DNA of 56,002 bases, filler included, from Candidatus Woesearchaeota archaeon (GTDB lineage: Archaea > Nanobdellota > Nanobdellia > Woesearchaeales > GCA-2685855), in NCBI GenBank assembly GCA_002685855.1. It is 4 parts of 4 records of this genome, joined end to end, with 100 filler letters (N's around TTAATTAATTAA, not from the genome) between each part and the next. Parts side by side here need not be neighbours in the genome. Positions count along the whole stretch, not along the records: positions 12,090 to 40,992 come from NYYS01000059.1; 3 more parts are not named here. One strand, 5' to 3'. A program made the translations under genes and the position numbers. The notes under the pieces are model-generated. The model ran no database searches, had not been told where the DNA came from, and saw nothing but the letters and a program-made list of their open reading frames with translations. How positions within the stretch are numbered: position 1 is the stretch's first letter; the number at the start of each line of letters is the position of its first letter. Shown here piece after piece: positions 12,090-38,848 of the stretch.

Positions 12090-13032
12090 CCTCGACCTCA
12101 GAAAACTCAAACACCAGGCAATCTTCAGAATCCAATCAGCACTACTCCAAGGAATGCGCGACCACCTTCTCGACCAAGACTACACCCAAGTCTTCACCCC
12201 CTGCCTCATGGGAGTCGCCTCAGAATCAGGATCTGACGTCTTTCCCGTAATCTACTTCAACAGAGAAGCATTCCTCAGACAAGACCCCCAACTCCACAGA
12301 CAACTCTCCATAGCCGGAGGAATACAAAAAGTATTCGACATCGGACCCTGCTGGCGCGCAGAACAATCCCACACATCAAAACACCTCACAGAACACAGAG
12401 TCATCGCAGTAGAATCAGGATTCATAAAAGACGAATTAGACACCATGCGCCTCGAAGAAGGCATGATCGTCGCAGCACTCACCAACGTCAAAAAAAAATG
12501 CAAAGAAGAACTCAAAACCCTCAACATAGAAGTCACTATCCCCAAAACACCCTTCCCAGAACTCAGATTCCCCTACATCTATACCCTACTCGAAAAAGCA
12601 GGTAAAAAGATCGAACACGGAGAAGACCTCGACTCAGAAGCAGAAAAAATCCTCTGGGAATACGTACAAAAAAAATACAAAACAGAATTCTACTTCATCA
12701 ATAGATTCCCATTCAAAGCAAAACCCTTCTACGTCATGCGCGTCGACGACGAACCCGAACACGCACGCTCCGTCGACCTCTACTTCAAAGGACTAGAACT
12801 CAGCTCAGGAGGACAACGAGAACACCGCTACGACAAAATCATGCAAGCAATCAAAGAAAAAAAAATGAACGCATCAGAAGTAGAATGGTTCACAAAATTC
12901 TTCGAATTCGGAGTACCCCCTCATGGAGGATTTGCAATAGGAATTGAACGAATTACACAAAGCCTCCTCAACATAGAAAACATAAGAGACTGCGTACTCT
13001 TCCCACGAGACACAGACCGCATCGTACCATGA
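12090..13032 (+). CDS. aspS: Aspartyl-tRNA synthetase (archaeal type), 5' truncated
   Basis: LDLR at the contig edge; AFLRQDPQL, RAE.S...H, ELSSGGQREH, PPHGGF.IG.ER, LFPRD. Confidence 0.93.
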
Positions 13033-13316
13033 AAATAGACACAGAACTCATCCAGAAAATTGCAACCCTCGCACACCTCGAACTCACAGAAGAAGAAGTC
13101 AAAACATTCAAAAAAGACTTCAAAGAAATACTCAACACGTTCAGCATCCTCGACAGGATAGACGTGAAAGGAACAAAAAGCTCCTTCAGACCCCTCGAAC
13201 AAAAAAACATCCTCAGAGAAGATAAAATAAAACCATCCCTCACACAAAAAGAAACACTCTCCTTCACAAAAGACCACAAAGACGGATTCTTCATAGGACC
13301 AAAAACAATAGAATAA
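13029..13316 (+). CDS. gatC: Asp/Glu-tRNA amidotransferase subunit C
   Basis: IA.LA.L, LRED, FF.GPK; position before gatA. Confidence 0.9.
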   Translation: MKIDTELIQKIATLAHLELTEEEVKTFKKDFKEILNTFSILDRIDVKGTKSSFRPLEQKNILREDKIKPSLTQKETLSFTKDHKDGFFIGPKTIE

Positions 13317-13321
13317 AAAGA

Positions 13322-14680
13322 ATGACCCCAACAACAAAAACACCTTCCAAAAAAGAAATCCAAAACGTTCTCAAAGAATGTGAGACCCACAACAAAAAAC
13401 ACCATTGCTTCACCACACTCTGCAAAGAAGAAGCACAAAAACAAAAAAAAGCAAAAGGAACACTCAGCGGAATCTACATCTCTGTAAAAGACAACATCTG
13501 CGTAAAAGACGTAGAAACAACCGCAGGCTCACACATCCTCAAAGGATACCTCCCAAAATTTGACGCAACAACCATTCAAAAACTCAAAGAAGAAGGAGCA
13601 ACAATCATAGGAAAAACATCCTGCGACGCCTTTGGTTTCGGAAGCTTCAACACAAACGTAGGAAAAGGATTCTCAATCCCAAAAAACCCCCACGACACCA
13701 AACGAACAACAGGCGGATCATCCGGAGGAAGCGCAGCCATCACACAACTAGCCACCTTTCCCCATGTTTCACTTGCAGAATCCACAGGAGGCTCCATCGC
13801 CTGCCCTGCATCCTTCTGCGGCATCATCGGACTCACACCCACCTACGGTAGAGTCAGCAGATATGGACTCATCCCCTACGCAAACTCCCTCGACAAAATA
13901 GGAATCATGAGCAAGAAAGTTAGTGAAATAGAACCAATCCTCAAAGTCATCTCAGGATTCGACGAAAAAGACGGAACCAGCCTCAAAGAACCCCTAAACC
14001 TTAACGCACCAAAAAAACTCAGAATAGGCATAATCAAAGAAAGCTATGCAAAAGGAATCGATCCCGAAATCCAAAAAGCACTAAAAAGCATACTCACAAA
14101 ACTAAAACAAAAACACACAATAACAGAGATCTCCCTCCCCCTAACAACAACCTACGGCGTAGCCTGCTACTACATTCTCGCAACAAGCGAAGCATCCACA
14201 AACCTCGCCTGCCTCAGCGGACTCCGCTACGGACAAGAACTCCCTAAAAAAAACAAAGGATTCAACTCCTACTTTACCGAAGTCAGAACAAAATCATTCA
14301 ATCAAGAAAGCAAACGAAGAATCATGATCGGCACATTCACCCGAATGGCAGGATACCGAGACGCCTACTACATCAAAGCAACAAAAGTCAGAACAAAAAT
14401 AATCCAAGAATACAAAAAAGCATTCAAAACCTACGACGTCCTCATCAGCCCAACCATGCCCTTTATCGCTCCCACATTTTCAAACATAGACAAAATGACC
14501 CCCCTCCAAAACTACCTTAGCGACATCCTCACCGTAGGCTCCAACCTCGCAGGACTCCCCCACGCCAGCATCCCCATCGGCAAAAAAGAAGGAATGCCCA
14601 TCGGACTCCTCGCAATCACCGACCACCTCAAAGAAGGAACCCTCCTCCAAACACTCAAAGAAATAGAAGCACTACAATGA
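13322..14680 (+). CDS. gatA: Asp/Glu-tRNA amidotransferase subunit A
   Basis: SVKDNI, GGSSGGSAA, STGGSI..PA.FCG, YGRVSRYG amidase signature. Confidence 0.95.
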   Translation: MTPTTKTPSKKEIQNVLKECETHNKKHHCFTTLCKEEAQKQKKAKGTLSGIYISVKDNICVKDVETTAGSHILKGYLPKFDATTIQKLKEEGATIIGKTSCDAFGFGSFNTNVGKGFSIPKNPHDTKRTTGGSSGGSAAITQLATFPHVSLAESTGGSIACPASFCGIIGLTPTYGRVSRYGLIPYANSLDKIGIMSKKVSEIEPILKVISGFDEKDGTSLKEPLNLNAPKKLRIGIIKESYAKGIDPEIQKALKSILTKLKQKHTITEISLPLTTTYGVACYYILATSEASTNLACLSGLRYGQELPKKNKGFNSYFTEVRTKSFNQESKRRIMIGTFTRMAGYRDAYYIKATKVRTKIIQEYKKAFKTYDVLISPTMPFIAPTFSNIDKMTPLQNYLSDILTVGSNLAGLPHASIPIGKKEGMPIGLLAITDHLKEGTLLQTLKEIEALQ

Positions 14681-16101
14681 AATTCACAACAGACATCGTC
14701 ATCGGACTCGAAATCCACGCAGAACTAGACACACAAACAAAACTCTTCTGCAGCTGCGCAACAAAAGGAAACCAACAACCCAACACACGCTGCTGCCCCA
14801 TCTGCCTCGGACACCCTGGAACAAGACCCGTACTCAACAAAAAAGCACTCGACTACGCAACAAAACTCTGCCTCGCCCTCGGATCCAAACTCACAAAAGA
14901 AATCGTCTTCTCACGAAAAAACTACTTCTACCCTGACATGTCAAAAAACTACCAAATCACACAATTCGAAGAACCCATCGGAACCGGAGGAACAATAACC
15001 CTCAAAACAGGGAGGAAAATCCAGCTCACCCGCATCCACATCGAAGAAGACCCCGCCGCCCTTGCCTACACCCACGGAATGAAAAACTCTGACTCCGTCC
15101 TTGTAGACTACAACAGAGCAGGAAACCCCCTTGTAGAAATAGTCACAGAACCCCAACTTACCTCACCCGCCGAAGCACGTGACTTCCTCAACCGACTCAT
15201 CAGTGTCCTTGGTTACCTAAACATCTTCGATATCACCCGCGGAATAATAAAAGCAGACGCAAACATCTCCCTCAAAGAAAGCAACTACAGCAGAGTCGAA
15301 ATAAAAAACATCTCTGGTTTCAAAGAGATCGAAAAAGCCCTCACCTACGAAATCACAAGACAAAAAACACAGCTAAGGCGCGGCCTGAAAATAACACGAG
15401 AAACACGCGGATGGAACCCCACGAGCAAAACAACACTCTCCCTCCGAACAAAAGAAACAGAAGCAGATTATGGTTACATACTAGAACCCGACCTTTCACT
15501 CATCACTCTAACAGACGAACTCATACACCTAATGAAAAAAGAAATCCCCGAACTTGCACAACAAAAATCAGAACGCTATCAAAGAGAACACAAACTATCC
15601 AAAGAAGACGCAGACGTCATGTCCATGGAACTCGAACTCGCACAACTCTTTGAAAAAGTCGCAACAAAAATCGATCCCAAACTCGCCGCACGTTGGCTCA
15701 GAAGAGAACTCCTCCGCGTCCTCAACTACAACAAAAAAACCACAAAAGAGATACAATTCAACGAAAAAGAGATCATCGAACTCCTCAGCCTCGTTCAAAC
15801 CAACACCATATCAGAAACAACCGCACAAAAACTCATGGAACAACTCATGGAAAAACCCTTCTCACCAAAAGAACACATCAAAAAACACAATCTCGAACAG
15901 GTAACTAACGAAAAAGAAATTGAAACCCTCTGCAAAGAGACAATCAAAGAACATCCACAAGCAGTAAAAGATTATCACGCAGGAGAACAAAAATCCCTCC
16001 ACTACCTCCTCGGCCAGATAATGAAAAAAACCCGAGGAAAAGCAGAACCAACAAAAACAACAAAGATCCTAAAAAAAGAACTTAAAAAGAAAGAGCTCTA
16101 A
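14677..16101 (+). CDS. gatB: Asp/Glu-tRNA amidotransferase subunit B
   Basis: IGLEIH, KLFC, RKNYFYPD, DYNRAG.PL.EIVTEP, VEIKN. Confidence 0.96.
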   Translation: MKFTTDIVIGLEIHAELDTQTKLFCSCATKGNQQPNTRCCPICLGHPGTRPVLNKKALDYATKLCLALGSKLTKEIVFSRKNYFYPDMSKNYQITQFEEPIGTGGTITLKTGRKIQLTRIHIEEDPAALAYTHGMKNSDSVLVDYNRAGNPLVEIVTEPQLTSPAEARDFLNRLISVLGYLNIFDITRGIIKADANISLKESNYSRVEIKNISGFKEIEKALTYEITRQKTQLRRGLKITRETRGWNPTSKTTLSLRTKETEADYGYILEPDLSLITLTDELIHLMKKEIPELAQQKSERYQREHKLSKEDADVMSMELELAQLFEKVATKIDPKLAARWLRRELLRVLNYNKKTTKEIQFNEKEIIELLSLVQTNTISETTAQKLMEQLMEKPFSPKEHIKKHNLEQVTNEKEIETLCKETIKEHPQAVKDYHAGEQKSLHYLLGQIMKKTRGKAEPTKTTKILKKELKKKEL

Positions 16102-16104
16102 AAA

Positions 16105-16386
16105 TCACCCTGCTTTCTTCGTAGAAACAGCTTCCCTCTTCTGTACCAAAACCCTTAACAACCTTCTTTGACCTTTCTTATATACCTGGATATCCATATA
16201 TTTAACAAACAACATTACCAACACTGCAAACAACACCGTCAACGAAGTAGCAGACCCTGCATGCTGATCCAACACAAAGATAAAATAGTTACCATACACC
16301 CAAAAAAAACGGAACAAAAACCCTATCAAAATACCTAAACAAACCAAAAACAGTGCATTCTCATACCTCTGGAACATCCTTCTCAT
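16105..16386 (-). CDS. Small membrane protein (2 TM)
   Basis: Two hydrophobic segments; TATA-like sequence upstream. Confidence 0.55.
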   Translation of the reverse strand: MRRMFQRYENALFLVCLGILIGFLFRFFWVYGNYFIFVLDQHAGSATSLTVLFAVLVMLFVKYMDIQVYKKGQRRLLRVLVQKREAVSTKKAG

Positions 16387-16494
16387 CACAGAACAGAAAT
16401 CCAACCAACTATTTAAAATATATAGGTATAAACGGCAGAAACGTAGGAATCTATCAAAACCTTTTTATACTCAGTTCTCCTAGCTTACTCAGGG

Positions 16495-17046
16495 GTGGAT
16501 AGAATGAAATCAGGATACAAAGTCGGAGACATCATGACACATCAACCAGTTAAAGTACTGGGGACACTTTCTATAAAAGATGCAGCCACACTTATGAAAA
16601 AACAAGGAGTAGGAAGCGTTCTCATCGAAGAAAACAATAATGTTGTAGGCATCGCTACAGAGAAAGACTTTGTTGAACGGGTCATCGCACAAGACATCAG
16701 CCCACAAACACCTATTAAAAATATCATGTCAAGTCTCATAAAAGAAAAAACAACAGCCCCTGACATCGATCTCTACGACGCACTAAAAACCATGAACCAA
16801 CTTGAAATACGAAGACTCCCTGTAATGAACAACGGCCACTTTGTAGGCCTACTTACCCGGAAAGACATCCTTAAATTCCAGCCATCACTCTTCGACGTCA
16901 TTGTAGAAAAACTCCACGTACGAGAAGAACGAAGAAAACCCGGCGTTGCCATCCACGGAGAAGGAATGTGCGAACGCTGCCAAGCAATATCACAAAATCT
17001 GTTTCTCATCGACAACCTAAAGATCTGCCCACGGTGCAGAGTCTAA
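16495..17046 (+). CDS. CBS-pair protein with C-terminal Zn ribbon
   Basis: V.DIMT, GI.TE.D, IRRLPV, G.CERC...ICPRC. Confidence 0.9.
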   Translation: MDRMKSGYKVGDIMTHQPVKVLGTLSIKDAATLMKKQGVGSVLIEENNNVVGIATEKDFVERVIAQDISPQTPIKNIMSSLIKEKTTAPDIDLYDALKTMNQLEIRRLPVMNNGHFVGLLTRKDILKFQPSLFDVIVEKLHVREERRKPGVAIHGEGMCERCQAISQNLFLIDNLKICPRCRV

Positions 17047-17051
17047 TTAAA

Positions 17052-17729
17052 CTATACCTCCAAAAAACTCCTCTCCTTCTTCCGCGTATTCGGACTTAGC
17101 TCACCAAACCCACAATTTGAACAGGTCCAATCAAGATAGATCCACCCATCCTCCTTAACAGTCTTCGGAGCTTCCGGCAACATCACACGAACATAGGCAT
17201 GCCCCTGAATAAACACCAACTGAGCATCAATCCCAACCGCCTCCAACAAAGAAGCCAACAAAATACTTCCTGACTCACAATCACCCGCACCAATCTGCAA
17301 CACCTCACGCGCAGGCTCAACATACTCTGTTCCCAACGGATCATTCACATACTGCAACCCATCCCGAACAAAATAAAACAAGGCCTTTGCATAACACACC
17401 TTATCCCCCGGACAACTCTGCACCACAATATTCGCAGCCTGCTTAATAACAGGATCAGAAGGAGTCACAAACTTCCGATACAAAACAATATCAGAAGCAA
17501 CACCTGGATTCGCCTCTACTGAATAATTTCTGAACATATCAAACGAAGGAACCCCACTAGGCTCAGGATGCCACGGAATCCCATAATACGGAACCAACCA
17601 CAACACCATCAACCCTGCCATCACCACACCCCCTACCCATTTAAGAAGATGAGAACCCGAACCCTTCTCAGGATTCTTCTTCAGATCCTCTTCAATCTCC
17701 TTAGTCGTATAATGGCCCTCGCGCTTCAT
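17052..17729 (-). CDS. Membrane-anchored transglutaminase-like protein
   Basis: TM helix; Y..DP...EY, GDCE, HAY, LDWT triad. Confidence 0.85.
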   Translation of the reverse strand: MKREGHYTTKEIEEDLKKNPEKGSGSHLLKWVGGVVMAGLMVLWLVPYYGIPWHPEPSGVPSFDMFRNYSVEANPGVASDIVLYRKFVTPSDPVIKQAANIVVQSCPGDKVCYAKALFYFVRDGLQYVNDPLGTEYVEPAREVLQIGAGDCESGSILLASLLEAVGIDAQLVFIQGHAYVRVMLPEAPKTVKEDGWIYLDWTCSNCGFGELSPNTRKKERSFLEV

Positions 17730-17778
17730 ATAAATAAAAAGACACAATGTTTATAAATGCTTTATCATTTTTGGCCAC

Positions 17779-18480
17779 ATGTCTCAAACCACATTCAAAC
17801 ACCTCGCAATCATCCTTGATGGCAATAGACGCTGGGCTAAAGAACACAACAAACACCCCGGAAAAGGCCATCAGGAAGGAGCAAAACGCGTAGAAGAACT
17901 CCTCCGATGGTGCAAAGACCTCGACATCAAAGAACTCACCCTCTTCACCTTCTCAGCCCAAAACTTCCATCGAAGCTCAGAAGAGGTTTCCCTTCTCATG
18001 AAACTCTTCAAAGACTGGTTCGGCAGATTCAAAAACAAAAAAGAGATCAAAGAAAACGACATCCAAATCAATTTTCTAGGAAGAACACACCTCTTCCCAA
18101 AAGAGATCCAGGAAATCATGGAAGAACTCACAGAACATACAAAAAACCATAAAACCCGCATTCTAAACTTCTGCATGGGCTACGGAGGCAGAGAAGAGAT
18201 CATCGATGCAGTAAAAGCCCTAACACTCGACGTCAAACAAGGAAAAGTAGATCCATCAAAAATCGATGAAACCCTTTTCGGAACCTATCTCACAACAACA
18301 CACCAGCCCCAACTCATCATCAGAACCGGAGGGGCCCAACGCACATCAAACTTCCTCATATGGCAATCTTTCTACTCGGAATGGTACTTTGAAAAAAAAT
18401 ACTGGCCAGAATTCAGCAAAGAAGACCTCCAACGAATCATTTCAGAATACCAAACCCGTGAACGACGCTTTGGAAAATAA
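17779..18480 (+). CDS. uppS: cis-prenyltransferase (polyprenyl diphosphate synthase)
   Basis: HLAIILDGNRRWA, FS.QNF.R, YGGREEI, IRTGG..RTSNFL.WQ, RRFG. Confidence 0.96.
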   Translation: MSQTTFKHLAIILDGNRRWAKEHNKHPGKGHQEGAKRVEELLRWCKDLDIKELTLFTFSAQNFHRSSEEVSLLMKLFKDWFGRFKNKKEIKENDIQINFLGRTHLFPKEIQEIMEELTEHTKNHKTRILNFCMGYGGREEIIDAVKALTLDVKQGKVDPSKIDETLFGTYLTTTHQPQLIIRTGGAQRTSNFLIWQSFYSEWYFEKKYWPEFSKEDLQRIISEYQTRERRFGK

Positions 18481-18753
18481 CTATTTCAACTTCTTAAAAG
18501 CAGAAAGAAATGTGCTATTTTTCTTCTTCAAACGACTAATCGCATCAAGAATAGCCTTCTGAGGATCACCCGAGCTCATCTCAACAGTAATACGAGGAAT
18601 ACCAATCAACGGATGCTCAATACTATACGCAGCTACAAGAACGTTCTTATCCTCCCATAACTCCTCTTTCAAGGCATTACAGATCGTATGATCTGTTCCC
18701 TCTAATTCAAAGATAAACTTCTTTTTACCGTTCTCAAGAACTCTTAACTCCAT
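18481..18753 (-). CDS. rpoL: RNA polymerase subunit L (Rpo11)
   Basis: G.DHT.CN.L, AAY.IEHPL. Confidence 0.93.
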   Translation of the reverse strand: MELRVLENGKKKFIFELEGTDHTICNALKEELWEDKNVLVAAYSIEHPLIGIPRITVEMSSGDPQKAILDAISRLKKKNSTFLSAFKKLK

Positions 18754-18794
18754 ACCCGTCGTAATTAAGAATGTATTTATAAAGGTTGCTGTTC

Positions 18795-19121
18795 TTAGAT
18801 CCTCTTAAATACCTCGGCAATCTCAGAGGTCGCTGAAGGCCCATGAGTACCCTTAAAAAAGATTTTCGCTCCCCGGACAAGCCGCATTCCACCCTTAGCC
18901 TCTGCTGCCTCCTCAGGACCCTTATGGATCGTAAGAATCTCAAACCAATGCCCCGCCAGATGAATCTTGGCATCAGTCAGAATCTGCTTTCCCACTCCTC
19001 GGGCCTTAATACCTCCCAAGCCACCACCCTTAAACAAGACAACATACTCATACCTCCAGGCAGCATGCTCAATCCTCTTTCTTCTCAACCTAAACTTTGA
19101 CAACATTCTATCTTCAGACAA
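18795..19121 (-). CDS. Hypothetical basic protein
   Basis: ORF filling the gap between the methyltransferase and rpoL. Confidence 0.5.
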   Translation of the reverse strand: MSEDRMLSKFRLRRKRIEHAAWRYEYVVLFKGGGLGGIKARGVGKQILTDAKIHLAGHWFEILTIHKGPEEAAEAKGGMRLVRGAKIFFKGTHGPSATSEIAEVFKRI

Positions 19122-19705
19122 GAAACATTTATTAATTTTCTCCTTTTTAAATGATGCTTCATACTCTGCTTCAAAGGAAAAGAGAACGAAAACTCCTTAC
19201 CAACCCTCCACTTCTTCTTTGCAACAAACCCCTTCACATACTCCAGGGTAGAAGACTTATGTAACGTATACACCTTCTTAGAAAGCAACATCGCAGCCTC
19301 CAGAAAACGTAGATCCTCATGCGCCTCACGTGTACCAAACGGAGGATTCATCACCACAAGATCAACCTTCTCAGAAAACAAAGAAAGATCACCCACAACA
19401 ATCTCATACCTTTCCTCATCAATATTCTGGCTTGAAAGATTCTCCCTCAACACTGCAATAGCATCTGGATCCACCTCAACAAAAAAAACCTTCCCAGCTC
19501 CAAGAATCAAAGCACCAATACCTAACACACCTGTACCCGCCCCCAAATCAGCAACACACTTCCCCTCAATCTCCCCCTCCATAGCCGCAGCCCAAAGGAT
19601 TTCCGCAGCAACATCCGGATCAGTCACATACTGCTCCAAATTTGCCTTGGGAGCAACAAACTCTCTAAGCTTACTCAACTCCACACTCAACGATTTCTGA
19701 GACAT
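19085..19705 (-). CDS. METTL5-like N6-adenine methyltransferase
   Basis: LEQY.T, DLGAGTG.LG, NPPFG, H....I.V. Confidence 0.9.
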   Translation of the reverse strand: MSQKSLSVELSKLREFVAPKANLEQYVTDPDVAAEILWAAAMEGEIEGKCVADLGAGTGVLGIGALILGAGKVFFVEVDPDAIAVLRENLSSQNIDEERYEIVVGDLSLFSEKVDLVVMNPPFGTREAHEDLRFLEAAMLLSKKVYTLHKSSTLEYVKGFVAKKKWRVGKEFSFSFPLKQSMKHHLKRRKLINVSCLKIECCQSLG

Positions 19706-19795
19706 AGTAACTGAATCCACTTTTCTTTTATATGCATTCCGCTATCACAAAATATTTAAACTACCTCCTACACGATATTCTGTTTTGTTGGGGTA

Positions 19796-20296
19796 TTGTG
19801 TGTGGTAAAAAAAGAGCAACTACAAAGGGCTTTTCAGGCCATAAAAAAAGAATTCGAAGAACATCTCGACGGTATAAACAAGAACACTGAAGAGATTCAA
19901 ACACTCTTCGGCTACCTCCAGGAAGTCGAAGGAAAGGTCGACAAACTCATGGAACGCCTCGACACCATCGAATTCTCAACAGAAATAGAGAACGGAAACA
20001 CCACCACAGCAATCGAACTCAACATACGAGAACAGGAAGTATTCACTGTCATCTACTGTTCAGAAGAGGCCATCCAAACAGAAGAGATCGCAAAACGACT
20101 CGGATTCACCCCCTCTATGATAAACAGCTATATCTATAGAATCATATCCAAAGGTGTTCCCCTAATCCGAGATTTTAAAGAAGAAAAATCCTATATCAAG
20201 TTAGACCCTTCTTTCAAAGACCTTCAAATGAGAAAAAACATCCTAAAAATCGACGAATCTGTCTCTCGGACAATGTTGGCAGAGAAGATGATATAG
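19796..20296 (+). CDS. Coiled-coil + winged-HTH DNA-binding protein
   Basis: N-terminal heptads; LN.REQEVF...IA.RLG...I..KGVP HTH. Confidence 0.75.
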   Translation: MCVVKKEQLQRAFQAIKKEFEEHLDGINKNTEEIQTLFGYLQEVEGKVDKLMERLDTIEFSTEIENGNTTTAIELNIREQEVFTVIYCSEEAIQTEEIAKRLGFTPSMINSYIYRIISKGVPLIRDFKEEKSYIKLDPSFKDLQMRKNILKIDESVSRTMLAEKMI

Positions 20297-20432
20297 AGCT
20301 CTTTTTTTCACCCAGAATCAACACAAAAAATGTGTGTGTTGCTAAAATATTTTAAGCATATCTTCTCTTAAATTAATCTGAAACTTTTAAGCAAAACTTA
20401 AAAATTATTCAATCAATATAGATATTTTATAT

Positions 20433-20527
20433 CCAATACATAGTTAAACCAATAAATTGTATCTCCAATAAATAGTACAACCAATAAATAATTTTTAAAA
20501 AATATTATTGCAAAACCAATAAATATA
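20433..20527 (+). repeat. Left array of 16-bp-period repeats (CCAATAAATAGT)
   Basis: Units at 20433, 20449, 20465, 20481 and a fifth at 20516. Confidence 0.85.
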
Positions 20528-20552
20528 AATAGGAGCACATTCAAAAAACAGT

Positions 20553-20894
20553 ATGCCAAAAGAGAGCGGTCTCCTCGAATTAAAGGGGTTCCTTAGTTTT
20601 CTTATCCTTCATGAGCTCGATCAGAAGATTCTCTGCGGTGATGACTTGGCAATGAGAATAGGTGAACGAAAAGGCTCGATGCTCACTCCTGGAACAATTT
20701 ATCCTGCATTGAAAAAGCTCAGAAATAAACGTTTAATCCGGTATCGAAGACAGGGAAGAAAGAAGATGTACTATCTCTCAGAAATGGGAAAAGAGGAATT
20801 AAAACTTTTATATAAGCAATTTTCGCAATATTTTTATGGATTAAAGAGATTCATCAAGCGAAAATCACCAAAAAAAATAAAGAAGAAAAAATGA
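20553..20894 (+). CDS. PadR-family winged-helix protein
   Basis: GFL..LIL..L, PGTIYPAL..L, RK.Y.L...G. Confidence 0.9.
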   Translation: MPKESGLLELKGFLSFLILHELDQKILCGDDLAMRIGERKGSMLTPGTIYPALKKLRNKRLIRYRRQGRKKMYYLSEMGKEELKLLYKQFSQYFYGLKRFIKRKSPKKIKKKK

Positions 20895-20896
20895 TG

Positions 20897-20965
20897 GAAA
20901 TGCTTAAAGGTTTTAGAAAACAACAAAAAAGACAAAATATAAGAAATGCTTAAAGGTTTTAGAAA
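20897..20965. repeat. Perfect 23-bp direct repeat
   Basis: GAAATGCTTAAAGGTTTTAGAAA at 20897-20919 and 20943-20965. Confidence 0.9.
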
Positions 20966-21495
20966 TGGCTGAATTTGCAAGAGACGTACGAAAAGGTGAA
21001 CAATCGAGCCAGATCATGGCTCGCCTCCAAAGAGAACATCAGGTAGCAGAAGCTCTCATAAAACACGTAGAGCGAGCCCAGGAATCGATGGACCAGATCC
21101 ACGACCTAGAAAAACACCTCAACACCGTAGCCGACATCGTGAGGAAACTTGCTGATAGAAAGAGACACATCCAGGGAAAGGTAGACAAATGGGTGGCAAA
21201 ACATGAGCTGAGGGGTGACCTCAACGAAAAAAAGGCAGCACATAGAAGAAAGAGAGCCATCCATCGAATGATGGCCCTTACCAAAAAAGCACATAAAAGA
21301 CTAACTCCTGTTCTACAAGAGCTCCAGAAGATAAGACCTGCAACCCAGAACATCAACAAAATCATAGAACAGATGAATAAAGACATGGCCTATGTTGATG
21401 AGTATGAAAATGAAGAGATGAAAGAGCTCAACAGATGGGATCGACAGGTAGTCAAAGCCCGAAGAAGCTGGCACCTTTTTTCCGGTAGAATTTGA
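20965..21495 (+). CDS. Hypothetical helical/coiled-coil protein
   Basis: 176-aa charged all-alpha ORF. Confidence 0.7.
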   Translation: MAEFARDVRKGEQSSQIMARLQREHQVAEALIKHVERAQESMDQIHDLEKHLNTVADIVRKLADRKRHIQGKVDKWVAKHELRGDLNEKKAAHRRKRAIHRMMALTKKAHKRLTPVLQELQKIRPATQNINKIIEQMNKDMAYVDEYENEEMKELNRWDRQVVKARRSWHLFSGRI

Positions 21496-21508
21496 TAGTC
21501 GATTTAGG

Positions 21509-21536
21509 TGTGGAAATAAGCTATTTTATGTTAAAA
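21509..21536. other. Second, bacterial-like dif-type site
   Basis: TGTGGAAATAA-GCTATT-TTATGTTAAAA; right arm matches the E. coli XerD arm TTATGTTAAAT at 10/11. Confidence 0.45.
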
Positions 21537-21597
21537 CCAAGGTTTTCACCATTTATCGACGAGAAAACCCACAAAGTCTAGGTAACTGATCAAATAA

Positions 21598-21625: not shown

Positions 21626-21654
21626 TTTATATATGTGTGCTTTTCTAGAATACT

Positions 21655-22452: not shown

Positions 22453-22486
22453 GAATTGCTTAAAAGTTTTAGCTTGTGTTTTTTGT

Positions 22487-30933: not shown

Positions 30934-31010
30934 CAGAAAGGTTTATATATTTCAGGATGTGTTTTCACGCAAGAATGTTTACAACTATGAATGTGTCTAG
31001 GTGATAAAAG

Positions 31011-31937
31011 ATGGTAACAGGACTAAATTTTTTGAGTATTCGTGGGCATTATCAGCTTGTGAAGCATATTAAGGCAACGATTATTGGGCGAGGAGTGCCT
31101 GGGGAACAGACGTTGAGAGGACATATGAATGCAGTTCATAAGTCTCGTACAGCGTTTGATAGTGCTATTGCAGAAGGAAGAGCTGCTGAAGTTAAGAATC
31201 ACTGGTCTGCTTTTATTGATACGTTATCAAAGTCAGCAAAGGATCTTGAATCGGTCACATCTGATATGGAGAAGTCCCAATTGAAACTTATCGAGGAAGA
31301 GCAGGAGGTATTTAAAAAATATGATGAGATTGCTAAAAAGGTTCCTGAAAAAGAGAGAGATGAGCTTGAAAAGGCTTTAGAAGCGTTGAGAAAAGCAATG
31401 AAGGAGGTCTATTCTAAGCTGAATCAGGAGCAACGAGAAGGAAGAGATGCGTATCGTGAACGGGATAGGTGGTTTCGATATTTTTCTTTAAAGGTTGGAA
31501 GAGATGAGGGGCTTCAAGGTATAAGAACCCTAAAAAACTTGACGAACAAAGAACTTGATACTGTTAAAAGGTCTGAAGAGGAGTTTAAGAAGTTAAGTGA
31601 AAATGCTGAAGCACTTGATAAAAATCCTGGGGACAGCAAGAAAGTTGAAGAGTCTATTAAAATTATGATCGGTTGGAGTGAGGATATTGAAAGAGAAGCT
31701 GAAGAGAGCTATGATCTCCTGCATGCTTCAAATATTGAGCACATGCGCGTTATAGATCAACTTATGAATGAGAGTCCGAATCGTTTAAAACAGCTTCGAG
31801 AACTTTCTTTTCCCGGCGTTCCTTTAGCTGAGATGGAGAAATTATTAAAGGAAGCAGTATACAAAATCCATAAGAGACTGTGGACACTTTGGCGTATGGG
31901 CAAATATGCACGAAGAGAAGCAAAAAGGGCTAGATAG
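31011..31937 (+). CDS. Hypothetical coiled-coil protein
   Basis: 308-aa charged helical ORF; GGTGA RBS. Confidence 0.75.
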   Translation: MVTGLNFLSIRGHYQLVKHIKATIIGRGVPGEQTLRGHMNAVHKSRTAFDSAIAEGRAAEVKNHWSAFIDTLSKSAKDLESVTSDMEKSQLKLIEEEQEVFKKYDEIAKKVPEKERDELEKALEALRKAMKEVYSKLNQEQREGRDAYRERDRWFRYFSLKVGRDEGLQGIRTLKNLTNKELDTVKRSEEEFKKLSENAEALDKNPGDSKKVEESIKIMIGWSEDIEREAEESYDLLHASNIEHMRVIDQLMNESPNRLKQLRELSFPGVPLAEMEKLLKEAVYKIHKRLWTLWRMGKYARREAKRAR

Positions 31938-31982
31938 CTCTAATTAGAAAACTTTATATATACCTTTTTATAGGAAACAACT

Positions 31983-32366
31983 ATGGCGCTTGATGAACTA
32001 AGAGGATGGGTGGGTCTACTTCTTGGATTACTAGCTATAGCGTTGGGACTTATCCCTTTATTAGCAGGGTTGGGTGTAATAGGTTTTAATCTTCCTGAGT
32101 TTCTTCTTGGGATTATGACGACATTTATGCTCTACTTTATTCTTGCCATAGCAGTCTTGTTGTTTATTGATGCGATATGGGCAGATGATATGCTTCAAAT
32201 TGTCAGTATGGTTATTGCAGTAATCATCTTTGCTGCTGGCCTGATTCCTATCCTGCATAGCTTTGGAGTGCTTCCTTTTACAATACCTATTTCGCAGACG
32301 ATTGTAAGTATCCTGTTGATTATTGAAGGGATCCTTCTGGCTATAGTAGCAGCAGTAATGGTCTAA
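31983..32366 (+). CDS. 4-TM membrane protein
   Basis: Internal duplication GLIPLL..LGVI.F / GLIPIL..FGVL.F. Confidence 0.75.
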   Translation: MALDELRGWVGLLLGLLAIALGLIPLLAGLGVIGFNLPEFLLGIMTTFMLYFILAIAVLLFIDAIWADDMLQIVSMVIAVIIFAAGLIPILHSFGVLPFTIPISQTIVSILLIIEGILLAIVAAVMV

Positions 32367-32367
32367 G

Positions 32368-32766
32368 ATGGGGTTTACAACAAAGGTTAGCCAGTTGTTG
32401 CTTGGCGTGTTTTTTTTCTTGTTATCGTTACGTGTGATATTACCTTTCTGGGGGGTGCTTCCTTTTTCAGAGACCGTGTTTCAACAGGTTACGTTGTTTG
32501 GGTTGGAGCTTGTGCTCTTTTTGGGGTTGTTTAATCTTGTAACGAGTGAGAAAAGTTATCCTGCGTTACGGAATGTGGTTTGGATGGTTCAAACAGTGCT
32601 GATCTTGTTGGCTCTTGTGAATCTTTTGTATGATGTTGGGGTGTGGGGTTTGAGGTTTGGGTTTGTTGATGTTGAATTTATTGGATCGATGCTGCTTGTT
32701 GAGAGTATTCTGTTGATTAGTGTGTGTGGAGAATGTCTAAGAACAGGGTATGTTAAGATTAGTTGA
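32368..32766 (+). CDS. 4-TM membrane protein, probable paralogue of the upstream gene
   Basis: LP..GVLPF and L..E..LL motifs shared with 31983-32366. Confidence 0.65.
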   Translation: MGFTTKVSQLLLGVFFFLLSLRVILPFWGVLPFSETVFQQVTLFGLELVLFLGLFNLVTSEKSYPALRNVVWMVQTVLILLALVNLLYDVGVWGLRFGFVDVEFIGSMLLVESILLISVCGECLRTGYVKIS

Positions 32767-33013
32767 TCTTTACTTTTTTGCTGATGGCTTGTCCGGGCAT
32801 GCCTGTTTCAAAAAGAACTTTGACGGCGCCTGAGTTTCCATGGGCTCCGGTGATCTTGCCGGTAATATCTTTTTTTCCGGTGTTGTAGGTGACTGATTTT
32901 CCTACGAGTTTGGTAGCTTCTTCCTTTGTTGTGGTGTTGGGAGGTACGACTACCATTTGGTTGGTTTTCTGGGTGTGTTTTCCTCCACGATAGTTCTTTA
33001 TGGCTGCTTCCAT
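32759..33013 (-). CDS. rpl35ae: 50S ribosomal protein L35Ae
   Basis: NYRGG.H.Q, GKI...HGNSGAV...F..G.PG.A. Confidence 0.92.
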   Translation of the reverse strand: MEAAIKNYRGGKHTQKTNQMVVVPPNTTTKEEATKLVGKSVTYNTGKKDITGKITGAHGNSGAVKVLFETGMPGQAISKKVKIN

Positions 33014-33141
33014 AGGGTGGAGAAACTGCTGTTTATTTAAAAAGGTTGTTGTTGGAATAGGGTGTATTTAGGGTGTGGAGGGCTTGTGTGGTCTGGTCAG
33101 GAAGGATGTTTTAAGAGGTCTGAGAAGGTCTTTGGAGCTAG

Positions 33142-33735
33142 TTAGGATGCTGGTTGACGTGTGTAGGAGGGTTGGAAGAGGGTGTTGAGGCATTGTTTTC
33201 TGGCAGGTGAGGGGAGGGTTTGGCAGAGGGTGGCATTTCTGGTTATTTGGGCTGTGCAGAGGGTTTTTGTTTGGGGTTGGCCTATTTTGGTGCAGAGTGT
33301 GGTTTTGTTTTGGCTTGTGGCGAGGGTGTGGTAGCAGGAGTCTTTTAACAAGTTGTTGTTGATTTTGGTGCAGATGGTTTGGTCTGTTTGGTTGGCAAAT
33401 TTTGTGGCTGTGAGGCTGAGGCAGAGGTCTTGTTTTTTGAGGGTGGTGCAGTAGGAGAGAGCTGTTTCTGGGGTGGGTGCTTCTTTGATAGTGGTTGCTG
33501 TGTTGGAGAGTGTGGTGAGTTGGGTGTAGAGGAAGAGGGCCAAGAGGATTGCGGTGAGGATGAAGAGGAGGCCGAAGATGACTGCGAGGAGGGCGAGTCG
33601 GGGAGTTTTTTTCTTGTTTTTTTTGGTGTCTAGGAGGATAAGGATGCCAAGGATGAGTCCGAGGATGGGGAGGGGAGGGAGGATGTAGAGGATGCTTAGG
33701 ATGAATGCTATTATTGATAGGGTTGAGGTTTTCAT
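33142..33735 (-). CDS. Membrane protein (DUF4190-like) with extracellular Cys-repeat domain
   Basis: Two TM segments, then repeated C..I......C units. Confidence 0.65.
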   Translation of the reverse strand: MKTSTLSIIAFILSILYILPPLPILGLILGILILLDTKKNKKKTPRLALLAVIFGLLFILTAILLALFLYTQLTTLSNTATTIKEAPTPETALSYCTTLKKQDLCLSLTATKFANQTDQTICTKINNNLLKDSCYHTLATSQNKTTLCTKIGQPQTKTLCTAQITRNATLCQTLPSPARKQCLNTLFQPSYTRQPAS

Positions 33736-33770
33736 AGAGGGATGGAAGGAGAGGGGTTTTTATAGTTTTT

Positions 33771-34961
33771 CTAGATCAGAAAGAGGATTACTGGCAGGAT
33801 AATACAGGCCATGTTTTGTATTCTTCGGGTTTTTGTTGCTGCTGTTAGGAGGCCGATGCTTGTGGATGTGATGAGGATGAAGAGTCCCTGGATGCCTGAG
33901 AGGAAAGGTGTGAGGATGACTATGAGGAGGATGATTGTGATTGTGAGGGTGCTGTAGGGGATGGATTGCATGATGTGAATGATTTTTTTGGCGAGGATGA
34001 GGCCGAGGAGGGTGGAGATTGAGGCAGCAATGAGGGCAGTGGAGAGGTATGGAAGGAGGTATTCTTTTGTTGGGAGAAATATCTGGGTGATGGCGAGGAC
34101 AGCTCCGTTTCTGGCTTTTTCGAGGTAGGTGAGTGTTAGGAGAGAGTAGGTGAAGTTGAAGGTGTTTATGCTTCCTATGAGTATCATGAATCCGTAGTCG
34201 CCCATTTTTGGTGCGAGGAGCATGGCGAAGAGTGCTGCGATGCCTGCGCCTACTCCTGGGAGGATGGCTGTGGTGAGGCCTGCGATTGCTCCTGCTGCGA
34301 GGACGTGGATTGTTAGCTTATAGTTGAGGGGGATTTTTTTGGAGATGATTTGTTCGGGGAGGGTTGTGTTTTCTTTGAGGGAGTAGAGGAGTGTTGAGGT
34401 TCCGAAGAGTCCGGAGAGCATGGGGAAGAGTGGATTGGATAGGGAGGAGTTTAGGACGATTACGCCGAGGGTTCCTGCCAGGGTGAAGATGATGATTGCG
34501 ATTAAGGGGTTGTTGTCTGAGAGGATCATCCAGATTACGACAAGGATGAGGAGGTAGAGTGTGTAGGTTTGGAGGAATGGGACGATGAATAGGATGAGTG
34601 GCGAGAAGAGTATGAGGGTTGTTATGGAGATGATGATTGCGCCGAGGCTTCCGATGAGGGTGAGTTTTACTGCGTGGAATCCTTTTCCGTTGATGAGGTA
34701 GCGGTGGCCGGGGAGGACTCCTAGTGCCTGGGAGGCGTCGGGTGCTCCTAGGTAGATGCTGGGGATGCTGTCAAGAAATGAGTGGGTGATGCTGAGTGAG
34801 ATGAGGAAGAAGGAGAGTGAGAGTGGGTCTGTGAGTTTTAGGAGTGTTGGGAGACTTGCGATAAGGAGTGTTGCGATAAGATTGACGTGGATGCCAGGGA
34901 TGAGGCCGGTTATGATTCCGCAGAGGATTCCGATGGAGATTGCGATGGTGAAGGTGATCAT
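33771..34961 (-). CDS. TctA-like (tripartite tricarboxylate transporter permease family) membrane protein
   Basis: TGLIPGIHVN, IPSI.LGAP, LPGH, LSGLFG, LPG.G, ARNG. Confidence 0.85.
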   Translation of the reverse strand: MITFTIAISIGILCGIITGLIPGIHVNLIATLLIASLPTLLKLTDPLSLSFFLISLSITHSFLDSIPSIYLGAPDASQALGVLPGHRYLINGKGFHAVKLTLIGSLGAIIISITTLILFSPLILFIVPFLQTYTLYLLILVVIWMILSDNNPLIAIIIFTLAGTLGVIVLNSSLSNPLFPMLSGLFGTSTLLYSLKENTTLPEQIISKKIPLNYKLTIHVLAAGAIAGLTTAILPGVGAGIAALFAMLLAPKMGDYGFMILIGSINTFNFTYSLLTLTYLEKARNGAVLAITQIFLPTKEYLLPYLSTALIAASISTLLGLILAKKIIHIMQSIPYSTLTITIILLIVILTPFLSGIQGLFILITSTSIGLLTAATKTRRIQNMACIILPVILFLI

Positions 34962-35281
34962 TTTTTTTCGAGTTTTATTATTTCAATGTATTTTTTCTTT
35001 TTCCAGGTGTAGAATTCTCCTTCGATGTAGGCAGTTCCAGGGCTGATGGATGTGTTTTTGTTGATGGTGCCTGTTATGTTTTCGCAGAGGGATAGGGTGA
35101 GATAGGTTTTGTTTTTGTGTGTGTTAGATGTTAGGATTGTGGCTTGGGTGGTGAAGGTTTTTTCCTGGGTGTTGAGTGTTGTGAGGGTGGCTTCTGGGAG
35201 TGTTTTTGTTGTGAAGTAGAGGGTGATAAGTCCGATGATTGCGAGGAGGAAAGATATTTTTGTTAGTGTGGTGTCTTTCAT
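34958..35281 (-). CDS. Membrane-anchored small protein, possibly OB-fold
   Basis: N-terminal TM; G....W.....IEI C-terminus. Confidence 0.55.
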
Positions 35282-35389
35282 AAGGATGAGAAAGGGGTAC
35301 GGTTGATTAAGTTTGTCGGGTTTTTTTCGAAGGATTTTCGGTATAGTGTTAACACAAAACTTTTAAAGAGTTGGTGCCTTTTTAAAGTG

Positions 35390-37261
35390 ATGGCTGGGTT
35401 TACGTTTAAGACAACTGCTGAGTTGAAGGTTTCTGATAAGATTATTGACCAGATTATTGGGCAGGATGAGGCAGTTGAGGTGATGAAGAAGGCTTCGTTT
35501 CAGCGTCGTCATGTGTTGTTGATTGGTCAGCCGGGGACGGGTAAGAGTATGTTGGGGTTGGCTCTTGCAAAGTTGTTGCCGAAGGAGAAGCTTGTTGATA
35601 TTCTGAGTTATCCGAATCCGCATGATGAGAACAATCCGTTGATTCGTACGATTGCTGCGGGGAAGGGACGGGAGGTTGTGGCGACGGCGAAGATGCAGAG
35701 TATGCAGATGTTTAAGAACCAGAATGTGTTTATGTTTATTCTTGCGATTATTGCCATGATTGTGCCTTGGTGGGTGAGGTCGAAGTATGAGTCTGATATT
35801 ATGTTTGCTGCTTTTTTTCTGGGTGGTATGGCTTTTTTGATGGCGTTTGTTTTGTTTTTGAATTTGGGGAAGAGGCAGATGGGTGAGAAGGCTCAAGTTC
35901 CAAAGTTGATTGTGGATAATTTTCAGAAGAAGGAGGCGCCTTTTTTTGATGCTACAGGGAGTCATGCGGGTGCGTTGATGGGTGATGTTTTGCATGATCC
36001 GTTTCAGAGTGGTGGGTTGGGTACGCCTGCGCATGAACGTGTGGTTGCTGGTATGATTCATAAGGCTCATATGGGTGTGTTGTTTATTGATGAGATTGCT
36101 ACGTTGCGTCCGGATGTTCAGCAGGAGTTGTTGACTGCTATTCAGGAGAAGAAGTTTCAGATTACGGGTCAGAGTGAGAGGAGTGCTGGAGCGATGGTTA
36201 GGACTGAGCAGGTGCCGTGTAATTTTATCTTGCTGGCTGCTGGTAATTTTGATTCGATGAAGCATATGCATCCTGCGTTGAGGAGTAGGATTCGTGGGTA
36301 TGGGTATGAGGTGTATATGAACGATACGATGCCGGATACTGCTGCGAATCGGAGGAAGATTGCTCAGTTTATTGCTCAGGAGGTTAGGAAGGATAAGAAG
36401 ATTCCTCATTTTTCTAAGGCTGCTGCTGAGCGGATTGTGTGGGAGGCTCGGAAGATGGCTAATCGTAAGGGTCATCTGACGTTGCGGCTTCGTGAACTTG
36501 GAGGATTGGTTCGTGCTGCGGGTGATGTTGCGTTGGCAGAGAAGGCGAAGGTTGTTGAGGAAAAGCATATGGAGGCAGCAAAGAAGGTGGCTCGAACATT
36601 GGAGCAGCAGATGTCTGATCGGGTTATTGAGCATAAGAAGGAGTATGCGGTTATTGTTACGTCGGGCTATCAGGCTGGAAGGGTTAATGGGTTGGCGGTG
36701 ATGGGTGCGGGTCCTATTTATTCAGGTATTATTCTTCCGATTGAGGCAGAGGTGACGCCGGGTGGGAAGGAGAGTGAGATTATTGCTACGGGGAAGTTGG
36801 GGGAGATTGCTAAGGAGGCAATTTTGAATGTTTCGGGTATTGTGAAGAGGTATTTTGGTGAGGATATTAAGGAGACTAAGGATATCTATGTTCAGTTTTT
36901 ACAGACGTATGAGGGTGTGGAGGGTGATAGTGCGAGTATTGCGGTTGCGACTGCTGTTGTTTCTGCATTGACTCGGGTGCCGATTAAGCAGAACTATGCG
37001 ATGACGGGTTCGTTGTCTGTGCGGGGAGAGGTGTTGCCGGTTGGTGGGGTTACGGCGAAGGTGGAGGCAGCTATTGAGACCGGGATTAAGAATGTTATTC
37101 TTCCGAAACAGAATATGAAGGATTTAGTGATTGCTCCTGAGAAGATGAAGAAGATACGGATTGTTGCTGTTGAGCGTTTGGAGCAGGTCTTGAAGGAGGC
37201 GTTGTATTGGAAGGGGAAGGAGAAGATTTTGAAGCAGATAATGAAGGGAAGAAAAAAGTAG
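35390..37261 (+). CDS. lonB: Archaeal membrane-anchored Lon protease
   Basis: GQPGTGKS, two TM helices within the AAA+ domain, LFIDE, HPALRSR, VEGDSAS, GGV..K. Confidence 0.96.
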
Positions 37262-37399
37262 ATTTCTGGTTCGTAAATTGTACGGGTTGTTTTTTTTCCG
37301 AGGCCACGGAGTGGTCTCGCAGGACAGATATTTTTTGAATAATAGGTAGCAGAATATGTTTAATGGAGGAAGTAGTTGTAGAACACGTTTAAGGGATGT

Positions 37400-38377
37400 T
37401 TATGTCCAGGTAACTTTTATTTCGTCTGTTCGTTCATAGGGTTTGATTGATGATTCTTTAATTGTTGTTGGTCCTTGTGCGTTGTAAATTATGCTTCCTG
37501 TCCAGGCGATCATGGCTGCATTGTCGACAAGGAATTGGTTTTCGGGGGTGTACATGGTTGCATTTCGTTCTTTGCACATGGTTTGTGCCATTGTCTGGAG
37601 GGTTTTGTTGCAGGCTACGCCTCCTGCGAGTATTATTTCTTTTTTTTGGGTGTGTGCGAGGGCTCGTTCTGTTACCTCGATGAGTTGGGAGAATGCGATA
37701 TGTTGGGCAGAGTAGCAGAGGTCTTCTGTCGTGTATTCTTTTTTTTGGATCTTTTGTTTGAGGTTGGTGAGGAGTCCTCCGAAGCTCATATCCATGCCTT
37801 TTACTGAGTAGGGGAGGGGGATGAGTTTTCCGTTTTGGGCTTGTTTTTCTATGAGTGGGCCGCCGGGGAATCCGAGTCCGAGTTCTCTTGCGAATGTATC
37901 TAGGAAGTTTCCAATGCCGATGTCGAGGGTTTCTCCGAAGATGCGGTATTTTCCTTCTGTGAATGCGATGATCTGGGTGTTTGCTCCGGATGCGTAGAGC
38001 ATGACAGGGTCTGTTGCTTGGGTTCTGAGCTTGCCTATTTCGAGGTGGGCGATGCAGTGGTTTACGCCTATTAGTGGCTTTTTGAGGAGGATTGAGAGGC
38101 TTCTGGCGAATGCTGCGCCTATCTTTAGTGTGTTTCCTATGCCGGGGCTGATGGAGAATGCGATGAGGTCGATCTGTTTTGGCTGGATGTTGGCTTCTTT
38201 GAGGGATTGTTGGAAGAGGGCTTCGATTGACTGGAGATGGTGTTCTGCTACTTCTACGGGTCGCATTCCGCCTTGGGTGGTGGAATAGGCCTTTTTTGTG
38301 TTTGAGAGGATCTCTTTGTCTCTTGTTATGGCTATTCCGAGTGTGTGGGCGGTTGATTCAATGCCGAGGGTGATCAT
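37400..38377 (-). CDS. kae1: tRNA N6-threonylcarbamoyltransferase Kae1
   Basis: LGIESTAH, NHC.AH.E, SGANTQ, GETLD, PGGP.IE, GGVA.N, DNAAMIA. Confidence 0.96.
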   Translation of the reverse strand: MITLGIESTAHTLGIAITRDKEILSNTKKAYSTTQGGMRPVEVAEHHLQSIEALFQQSLKEANIQPKQIDLIAFSISPGIGNTLKIGAAFARSLSILLKKPLIGVNHCIAHLEIGKLRTQATDPVMLYASGANTQIIAFTEGKYRIFGETLDIGIGNFLDTFARELGLGFPGGPLIEKQAQNGKLIPLPYSVKGMDMSFGGLLTNLKQKIQKKEYTTEDLCYSAQHIAFSQLIEVTERALAHTQKKEIILAGGVACNKTLQTMAQTMCKERNATMYTPENQFLVDNAAMIAWTGSIIYNAQGPTTIKESSIKPYERTDEIKVTWT

Positions 38378-38848
38378 AGGAGTTGGAAGGGGGGATTTGT
38401 TTAAAAAGGGGTTGAATGAGGGAAAAAGTCTCTAGTGCTATCTATATGTTTATGGTGTCAAAAGGTATAAAGAAAAAAAAATGATGCCATGCATACTAGA
38501 AAAACCGAATTTCTGGCGATTAGTAATCGCGGACTGAACACCTCGTTGCCTTGGTGCGTACATCCCGATTCTATCAACCCCATCTTCTATGGGAACCATC
38601 TGTCTCTTTTCGAGGTGGGCTTCGTGCTTAGATGCTTTCAGCACTTATCCCTTGGGGCGTAGCTGCTCGGCTTGCCTTGTCAGACAACCGATAGACCAGA
38701 GGCCCCGAGCTTTCGTTCCTCTCGTACTAAAAAGTCCTTCCTCTCAGACAATGAACACTTCCAGTAGATATCAAACAAACTGCCTCACAGCGTTCTGAAC
38801 CCAGCTCACGATCCCTTTTGATGGGTGAACACCCCCACCCTTGGCAGC

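Follow-up and report, generated by a model that had tools for sequence, protein, structure and literature searches.

What does a strand bias signify when it changes sign at a dif site, where replication is expected to end, but with the polarity expected where replication begins? This question is raised by a stretch of 56,002 nucleotides (the window) from Candidatus Woesearchaeota archaeon (GenBank assembly GCA_002685855.1), whose genome comprises 953 kb in 66 contigs and is rated 94% complete. The window consists of several of these contigs joined by N spacers. One of them, C59 (NYYS01000059.1, window 12,090–40,992), carries a gene for a XerA-type tyrosine recombinase and, beside it, a dif-like site. 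The + strand is A+C-rich to the left of this site and G+T-rich to the right. On balance, the evidence leans toward dif being a fixed terminus in a genome whose leading strand is A+C-rich, the polarity having flipped within the order. The elements at the switch are as follows:

12154–21495, no strand: left arm, + strand A+C-rich at four-fold sites in 14/14 genes
20965–21495, + strand: ORF of 176 residues assigned to no family, with the change point at its 3′ end
21598–21625, no strand: dif-like site of 11-6-11 layout, with a perfect 9-bp inverted core at 21,600–21,623
21655–22452, + strand: xerA-type tyrosine recombinase, with a Phage_integrase domain (PF00589, E 4e-44) and a SAM-like domain
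21655–38377, no strand: right arm, + strand G+T-rich at four-fold sites in 16/16 genes, weaker at 23.3–32.4 kb

The original prediction described this pattern for genes on both strands, and the counts bear it out in every gene of both arms. Left of 21.5 kb, the four-fold sites of + genes contain A397 C376 G24 T99, a keto skew of −0.73 with G at 24 of 896 sites; − genes, read on the + strand, give −0.59. To the right, + genes have a keto skew of +0.38, and − genes, read on the + strand, contain A40 C7 G372 T240 (+0.86, with C at 7 of 659 sites). Intergenic DNA is concordant, with a keto skew of −0.12 on the left and +0.23 on the right. The word "extreme" used in the prediction does not suit most + genes at 23.3–32.4 kb, which are only mildly skewed (+0.09 to +0.41). 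This part of the window (23295–32366) is a run of mostly unannotated + strand genes and is a possible acquired island.

The best change point falls at 21,462/21,477, with a log-likelihood gain of 620 and a support of 21,453–21,660 over three interval choices. The support interval takes in the dif-like palindrome, and the switch is at most about 140 bp from dif. The switch is sharp and fixed, as predicted, and its origin-type direction (A+C to G+T) was also called correctly. No AT-rich unwinding element was found at the switch: the DNA at 21.5–21.7 kb is 35% GC, and an AT-rich tract (20.3–20.5 kb, 21% GC) lies 1 kb to the left of the change point.

The prediction allowed for a misassembly, a recent inversion or an inflection far from dif. 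The change point disposes of the last. The skew also flips at 12 kb, at a contig join, but the flip at 21.5 kb is internal to C59 and lies wholly inside this single contig. A separately assembled contig (run X1) spans 20,605–21,992 with zero differences; X1 is possibly the source sample, and the contig would then derive from the same reads. Read depth in Logan contigs is about 5–6 on either side of 21.5 kb. Gene order on both flanks of dif agrees with that of three relatives (G031, G325, and G034), the markers being CBS, uppS, a methyltransferase, and padR on one flank and rpl35Ae and lon on the other. A misjoin or a recent inversion at 21.5 kb is unlikely, since an independent contig bridges the switch and both flanks are syntenic in relatives. 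A chimeric contig, which a low-depth metagenome bin with at least two contigs of bacterial look might lead one to suspect, is already largely refuted and hardly credible. The archaeal 23S rRNA and the taxa of protein look-alikes indicate an affiliation with Woesearchaeota; the family of this genome is shared by none of the sampled relatives.

The site itself is probably dif, as judged from its sequence and context. It is intergenic, about 30 bp upstream of xerA, and the assembly contains one perfect copy, other matches carrying 3–4 mismatches. XerA residues R130, H212, R215, H238, and Y247, which we take to be catalytic, are invariant across 16 homologues. The dif pattern is present in 70 of 401 genomes of the order, compared with 25 of 401 for a reversed control; two unpublished genomes are counted in this tally, and none of the claims depends on them. 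A xerA homologue lies within the fetched region at 37 of 47 dif loci. The locus forms part of a conserved block of rpoL, a methyltransferase, a gene for a coiled-coil helix-turn-helix (HTH) protein, often padR, xerA, and dif. The 176-residue ORF has no homologue in the loci searched. A search for related loci on genome contigs returned mostly bacterial recombinases, and a metagenome scan found no close relative of the locus (best 55%). In a XerA tree of 42 rows, built from a quick search and mostly unresolved, this genome grouped neither with family f21 nor elsewhere.

Two further sequence likenesses were noted at the site. A lone 10-mer at window 21526–21535, 75 bp upstream of the dif-like site, looks like the arm of bacterial dif that XerD recognizes. 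In this order the dif consensus is symmetric (for example, L046:17519) and presumably closely resembles the loxP arms of phage P1.

The bias extends well beyond C59. The absolute skew is at least 0.3 in 52 of the 66 contigs (801 kb), each holding one sign, and 20 of 605 scored genes oppose the sign of their own contig. The sole strong sign change among the 66 contigs is that in C59 (gain 559), the next being in C40 (gain 12). The skew does not decay along the 79-kb C18. Genes link three contig joins; the sign is kept in all of them, and no second switch occurs there. Codons and stop codons are altered as well, and proteins are affected: Thr, Asn, and Gln are about 1.5–1.8 times commoner on the A+C strand, and Val is about half as common. 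The strand bias is linked to the strand and not to gene direction, is genome-wide and switches at dif. Within contigs, no skew gradient toward dif was found (22 stronger, 17 weaker; p = 0.52). Weakly skewed stretches tend to be poor in GC at four-fold sites (rho 0.66), a sign that they are imports and not regions of mixed fork direction. Orthologue skew showed no significant genome-wide correlation with any of ten relatives. By a rough estimate, composition alone accounts for the genome-wide polarity of the CCAATA motif.

A bias that turns at this site could also come from a dif-oriented process distinct from bulk replication, for example a translocase of fixed direction, or strand-specific repair or recombination working toward or away from dif. 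The heterogeneous skew within the order, where one genome (G016) is one-signed and many origins and dif sites are unswitched, would suit it. The one-signed contigs, the lack of decay in C18 and the sign-preserving joins are instead replichore-like, and no such enzyme was identified. We regard this account as improbable.

The reading of dif as a terminus draws first on position. The switch lies within about 140 bp of dif, and skew inversions at dif mark the terminus in bacteria and Methanosphaera (PMC2958812). The change point is also off the AT-rich tract, and inverted archaeal skew has precedent in the haloarchaea, where the GC skew is inverted (PMC2841640). Across archaea, third-position G excess anti-correlates with gene excess (10.1101/2023.11.15.567178). 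The remaining support comes from relatives.

Skew at dif could be scored at 32 of 47 loci, the other 15 having no xerA or too little flank. Three of the 32 xerA-linked sites switch from G+T to A+C (G031, G034, and G270) and three from A+C to G+T (G263, G130, and G183). Both skew polarities occur within the order. The most direct comparison is with G034, whose genes share their orientation to dif with this genome yet have the opposite skew. On the coding strand, the values in G034 and here are +0.76/−0.52 for the coiled-coil HTH gene, −0.48/+0.73 for the methyltransferase, and +0.75/−0.77 for rpl35Ae. In G031, all three shared left-flank genes outside xerA and padR are also opposite in skew. 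This mirroring of the same gene block in the same orientation favors a terminus whose polarity has flipped. The A+C stretch of G034 lasts only about 10–20 kb; separately, contig C1 of G034 is T-rich over 60–317 kb. G130 resembles this genome across a 260-kb contig. Among f21 genomes, G130, G224, and weakly G183 go from A+C to G+T at dif, with 147 kb and 113 kb sampled in G130.

The skew at cdc6 was surveyed in 13 genomes, chosen toward f21 and dif-switch genomes and not as a random sample. Three f21 genomes (G130, G183, and G296) have a weak G+T to A+C switch in the gap upstream of canonical cdc6. G270 starts at 0 and becomes A+C-rich; in G031 and G034 both sides are A+C-rich; and G020, G224, G258, G326, and G025 are flat. 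In G138, a strong A+C to G+T switch occurs just after cdc6, and this genome is normal at both landmarks; G254 has a weak switch in that direction at cdc6. G258 has a sign change in the normal direction at 920–1,020 kb, around cdc6. Where both landmarks switch, dif and cdc6 are opposite in sign (G130, G183, and G138, with G270 a weak exception). That the two flip together in f21 genomes supports the terminus reading, as does the distance of 91–160 degrees between canonical cdc6 and dif or xerA in four single-contig relatives. In G326, a dif-like site lies 41 kb from cdc6, but no xerA is near that site.

Sequence elements around xerA are the second comparative argument. They are listed here with the genes that accompany them:

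19796–20296, + strand: coiled-coil and HTH protein, conserved beside xerA/dif across the order
20429–20527, + strand: left array of five 16-bp repeats with a CCAATA core, mostly of 16-bp period, reading toward dif
20553–20894, + strand: PadR-like winged-helix protein; arrays occur in loci with this gene
22487–22534, − strand: right array of three repeats in inverted orientation, reading toward dif

The arrays face inward and bracket padR, the ORF, dif, and xerA, both here and in G059, G263, G316, G006, and L205. They were not detected with the same profile in G034, G270, and G321, and seven of eight loci lacking padR are without an array site. The PadR-like protein would thus be a candidate array binder. 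RTP of bacterial fork traps is a winged-helix protein. Inward arrays accompany an A+C to G+T switch here and in G263, and the other polarity in the metagenome locus L205 (+0.12 to −0.42) and in G006 (−0.06 to −0.34). Since the arrays keep their orientation under either polarity, a module with a single function would require the sign to vary from lineage to lineage. Conserved sites of opposite orientation surround the putative terminus, as in a fork trap, and together with the sharp switch they point to a putative site-specific fork stop.

The coiled-coil HTH gene adjoins xerA/dif in 31 of 148 loci searched, many of them short or non-archaeal. A protein of similar layout, with marginal similarity (E 0.023), is encoded at C52:16,633 beside an ORB-like box and iterons. 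We read repeated BRE/TATA-like elements at 20375–20393, 20901–20962, 22457–22472, and 22622–22636, several of them antisense into padR or xerA.

If dif is the terminus, two forks would converge at xerA/dif and be held near dif, possibly by the inward-facing arrays bound by the candidate PadR-like protein, and XerA would then resolve dimers there. A trans-acting change in replication or repair would have reversed and amplified the strand on which deamination-type changes are fixed. The G+T strand would acquire C to T and A to G changes, and the leading-strand template would be the one that takes them. PolD working without PolB, together with a divergent uracil-DNA glycosylase (UDG), might speculatively add to the size of the bias. 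The cdc6-linked origin would lie in DNA that is unassembled here, and it is unswitched in several relatives.

Several observations weigh against a terminus with reversed polarity. The switch runs from A+C to G+T and not from G+T to A+C as at an ordinary terminus. At 26 of the 32 scorable xerA-linked sites no switch exceeds 0.15; as a rule, then, dif does not mark a fixed terminus in the order. At cdc6, the switches seen in f21 genomes are slight (+0.06 to +0.13 changing to −0.07 to −0.16), and of six such genomes two are unswitched there and one, G254, changes weakly in the opposite direction. If the lagging-strand template is deaminated, the leading strand should be rich in G+T (PMC7143001), and this genome shows exactly that G+T versus A+C deamination signature. 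The assembly contains no strong G+T to A+C switch of the kind expected at an inverted origin, the change point in C40 being weak. In Sulfolobus, dif lies outside the fork-fusion zones (PMC3020120). Binding of the arrays and fork arrest are themselves putative. PolB classes, judged from profile scores alone, showed no association with polarity (15 versus 15 genomes, p = 0.36), and the inverted f21 genomes possess PolB. Finally, contigs with replication-island genes are weakly skewed, as they would be if replication began at dif and ended over a broad zone opposite it. The genes concerned are ones that we take, from their translations, to be mcm, tbp, and radA.

The last point belongs to the principal alternative, in which polarity is normal, the leading strand is G+T-rich, forks leave xerA/dif, and termination is broad near an old, silent oriC. 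Initiation could depend on a winged-helix protein acting at the 16-bp arrays or on recombination, with XerA cleavage or a division-induced break priming outward synthesis. The mutational chemistry could stay as it is. Within the order, origins switch from A+C to G+T in G138 and, more broadly, in G258, and a DPANN genome whose origin lies beside cdc6 has this polarity too (PMC5905446). A single sharp switch with weak-skew core contigs fits a fixed origin and diffuse termination (PMC3317982). Two landmarks elsewhere in the genome are also compatible: the strand along dp2 in C29 is G+T-rich, and the best ORB-like box, at C52:16,484, has no switch. The only orc1 match, a paralogue on C45, is likewise unswitched. 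The assembly lacks canonical cdc6, dp1, and the beginning of dp2, C29 starting inside the last of these; in G031 and G034 the cdc6–polD strand is A+C-rich and unswitched, again the mirror of this genome. A candidate second cdc6 at C53:11,124 was rejected for lack of similarity to the cdc6 of relatives.

Against an origin at dif, the same site shows a terminus-polarity switch in G034, G031, and L205. The origin would thus have had to arise within about 140 bp of a former terminus while the arrays kept their orientation, and the cdc6-gap switches in the three f21 genomes would be left unexplained. Skew neither strengthens nor weakens toward dif, and it is weak where GC is low. Depth is not higher at dif: it is 5.7, compared with 6.1 at C52 (8 contig pieces each from Logan contigs of about 5x; p = 0.19), a difference that is not significant and favors neither reading. 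Runs X2–X4 gave short pieces only and were left out. The switch does not look like a canonical oriC with ORB boxes and an adjacent orc1/cdc6: C59 has no ORB-like match with the patterns used, and the orc1 match is on another contig. We consider outward forks from dif possible but the less probable account. Slightly less probable again is its fullest form, a fixed recombination-type origin at the dimer-resolution locus with the Orc1 origin silent or lost, outward forks arising through XerA-linked recombination or a winged-helix protein on the inverted arrays, near-complete strand asymmetry, and possibly PolD as sole replicative polymerase. The original prediction offered inverted skew or an origin coinciding with dif; both survive, and the comparative data lean to inverted skew. 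Composition alone cannot separate a swap of roles from a flip of sign, because both invert everything.

A third history would make the switch a fossil. The chromosome would be one-signed through unidirectional replication, with a large segment inverted at dif. One-signed genomes exist in the order and among Microgenomates (PMC7143001), and three normal and three inverted dif switches would fit random inversion. In the order the example is G016, a single contig of 1.3 Mb (C1) in which A exceeds T on the + strand in 9/9 sampled regions (L042, L047–L054); such a one-signed TA skew is the pattern that unidirectional replication would give. At the locus studied here, gene order on both sides of dif matches that of the three syntenic relatives, the skew is at full strength next to the site, and there is no second good dif copy. 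A fossil inversion is accordingly very improbable.

Gene direction had been taken to favor a terminus, and the genes named for it do point toward the site; they are listed here together with lon:

12154–16101, + strand: aspS (5′ end cut by the contig end)–gatC–gatA–gatB, toward dif, skew −0.78 to −0.92
32759–33013, − strand: rpl35Ae, toward dif; right-flank syntenic marker in G031, G325, and G034
35303–37261, + strand: Lon protease, away from dif; coding strand G+T-rich (+0.79)
37400–38377, − strand: kae1/TsaD, toward dif; +0.94 on the + strand
38502–40992, − strand: archaeal 23S rRNA, cut by the contig end, toward dif

The argument itself proved weak. By automatic gene calls, only 40% of the coding length in this stretch points toward dif. 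Genome-wide, the A+C strand carries 449 of 762 genes of at least 100 residues (59%) and a 25-gene S10–spc block. A similar share is found in relatives: 0.60 in G034 (92/154), 0.57 in G258 (65/115), 0.56 in G016, 0.54 in G138, 0.52 in G079, and 0.48 in G130. The S10 operon is directed away from dif or xerA in 5/5 relatives checked. Gene orientation was rejected as a discriminator, since relatives of normal polarity also have an A+C-strand gene excess, which is also compatible with an origin at dif.

PolB was not found in the 94% complete assembly by two profiles, tblastn, or motifs, but with the other gaps in the assembly the gene may yet be present; PolB is found in 157 of 161 genomes of the order that are at least 94% complete. 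The UDG (C23:11,769–12,341) scores far more weakly than those of relatives (E 5e-12 versus about 1e-35). The polarity groups could not be told apart by the presence of UDG and NucS. Across the order, the distribution of PolB profile scores looks bimodal, which may reflect an archaeal type and a PolII-like B7 group (PMC7544198).

The locus can be compared with several known systems. With the archaeal XerA/dif systems of Thermococcales, Methanosphaera stadtmanae, and Sulfolobales (PMC2958812, PMC3020120), it shares a single Xer-type recombinase, a unique intergenic 11-6-11 site, and flanking inverted repeats. The site adjoins xerA as in Sulfolobales and lies at a skew inversion as in M. stadtmanae. 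It differs in its origin-type polarity, near-perfectly symmetric arms, and four-fold skew of up to 0.9, and the repeats on its flanks form arrays of 16-bp units that lie about 1 kb off and accompany a PadR-like gene. Replication strand asymmetry with a G+T-rich leading strand (PMC3269016, PMC7111523) has the same strand linkage, independence of gene direction, sharp switch at a landmark, and codon, stop-codon, and amino-acid effects; here the bias has the opposite sign with respect to dif, and relatives with the same locus include examples of each sign. The haloarchaeal GC skew (PMC2841640) is an archaeal precedent of reversed polarity and is weak in H. volcanii, whereas in this DPANN lineage the reversal affects both the GC and AT components, is extreme, and is anchored on dif. 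The one-strand C-rich genomes of Microgenomates Ch65 and its relatives (PMC7143001) likewise belong to small-genome cells of symbiont type and have strong disparity, with rRNA and most genes on the C-rich strand, but they are bacterial and have neither a switch nor an A/T component.

Bacterial fork traps (Tus/ter and RTP; PMC3317982) also have oppositely oriented repeats around dif beside a gene for a small DNA-binding protein. The arrays here span only 2 kb, no sequence relation was found, and their role in arrest is putative. No archaeal fork trap is described in the literature searched, and PMC3020120 reports that a site-specific fork stop was looked for but not found in Sulfolobus. The same literature, outside which most subscription journals fall, includes no paper dealing with dif or the polarity of skew in Woesearchaeota. 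The terms "skew", "XerA", and "dif site" are absent from the main text of 10.64898/2026.05.13.725050, which describes 208 complete Nanobdellota genomes; its supplements may hold relevant material.

Both outcomes run counter to a working rule. Should the polarity prove reversed, replication-linked mutation bias is able to change sign from one archaeal lineage to a related one while the locus stays as it is; matched pairs of genomes could then be used to study the cause of strand skew, and origins called from skew in DPANN genomes can point the wrong way. Should forks instead start at dif, a recombination site would serve as a fixed, non-Orc1 origin.

Some minor features of the material were also recorded. 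No 16S rRNA was found in the assembly, and the tRNAs found number 6. A sigma-70 promoter scan was set aside, the model being unsuited to archaea. Contigs C43 and C27 are near-duplicates and probable bin contamination, and C66 may be likewise; translations of the first two presumably resemble bacterial DnaA, YidC, MnmE, and MnmG. The assembly is broken by short shared repeats at the ends of C4, C12, C15, C21, C33, C40, C50, C55, C56, and C58, some of which adjoin IS200/IS605 transposases. At one archaeal locus (L055:10363–11154), a gene like Rmt-family 16S rRNA methyltransferases lies beside pelota, with a score of 159 bits that is below the 250 cut-off. An SMC/Rad50-like ATPase is encoded at window 52294–54348, in the low-GC, unskewed contig C63.

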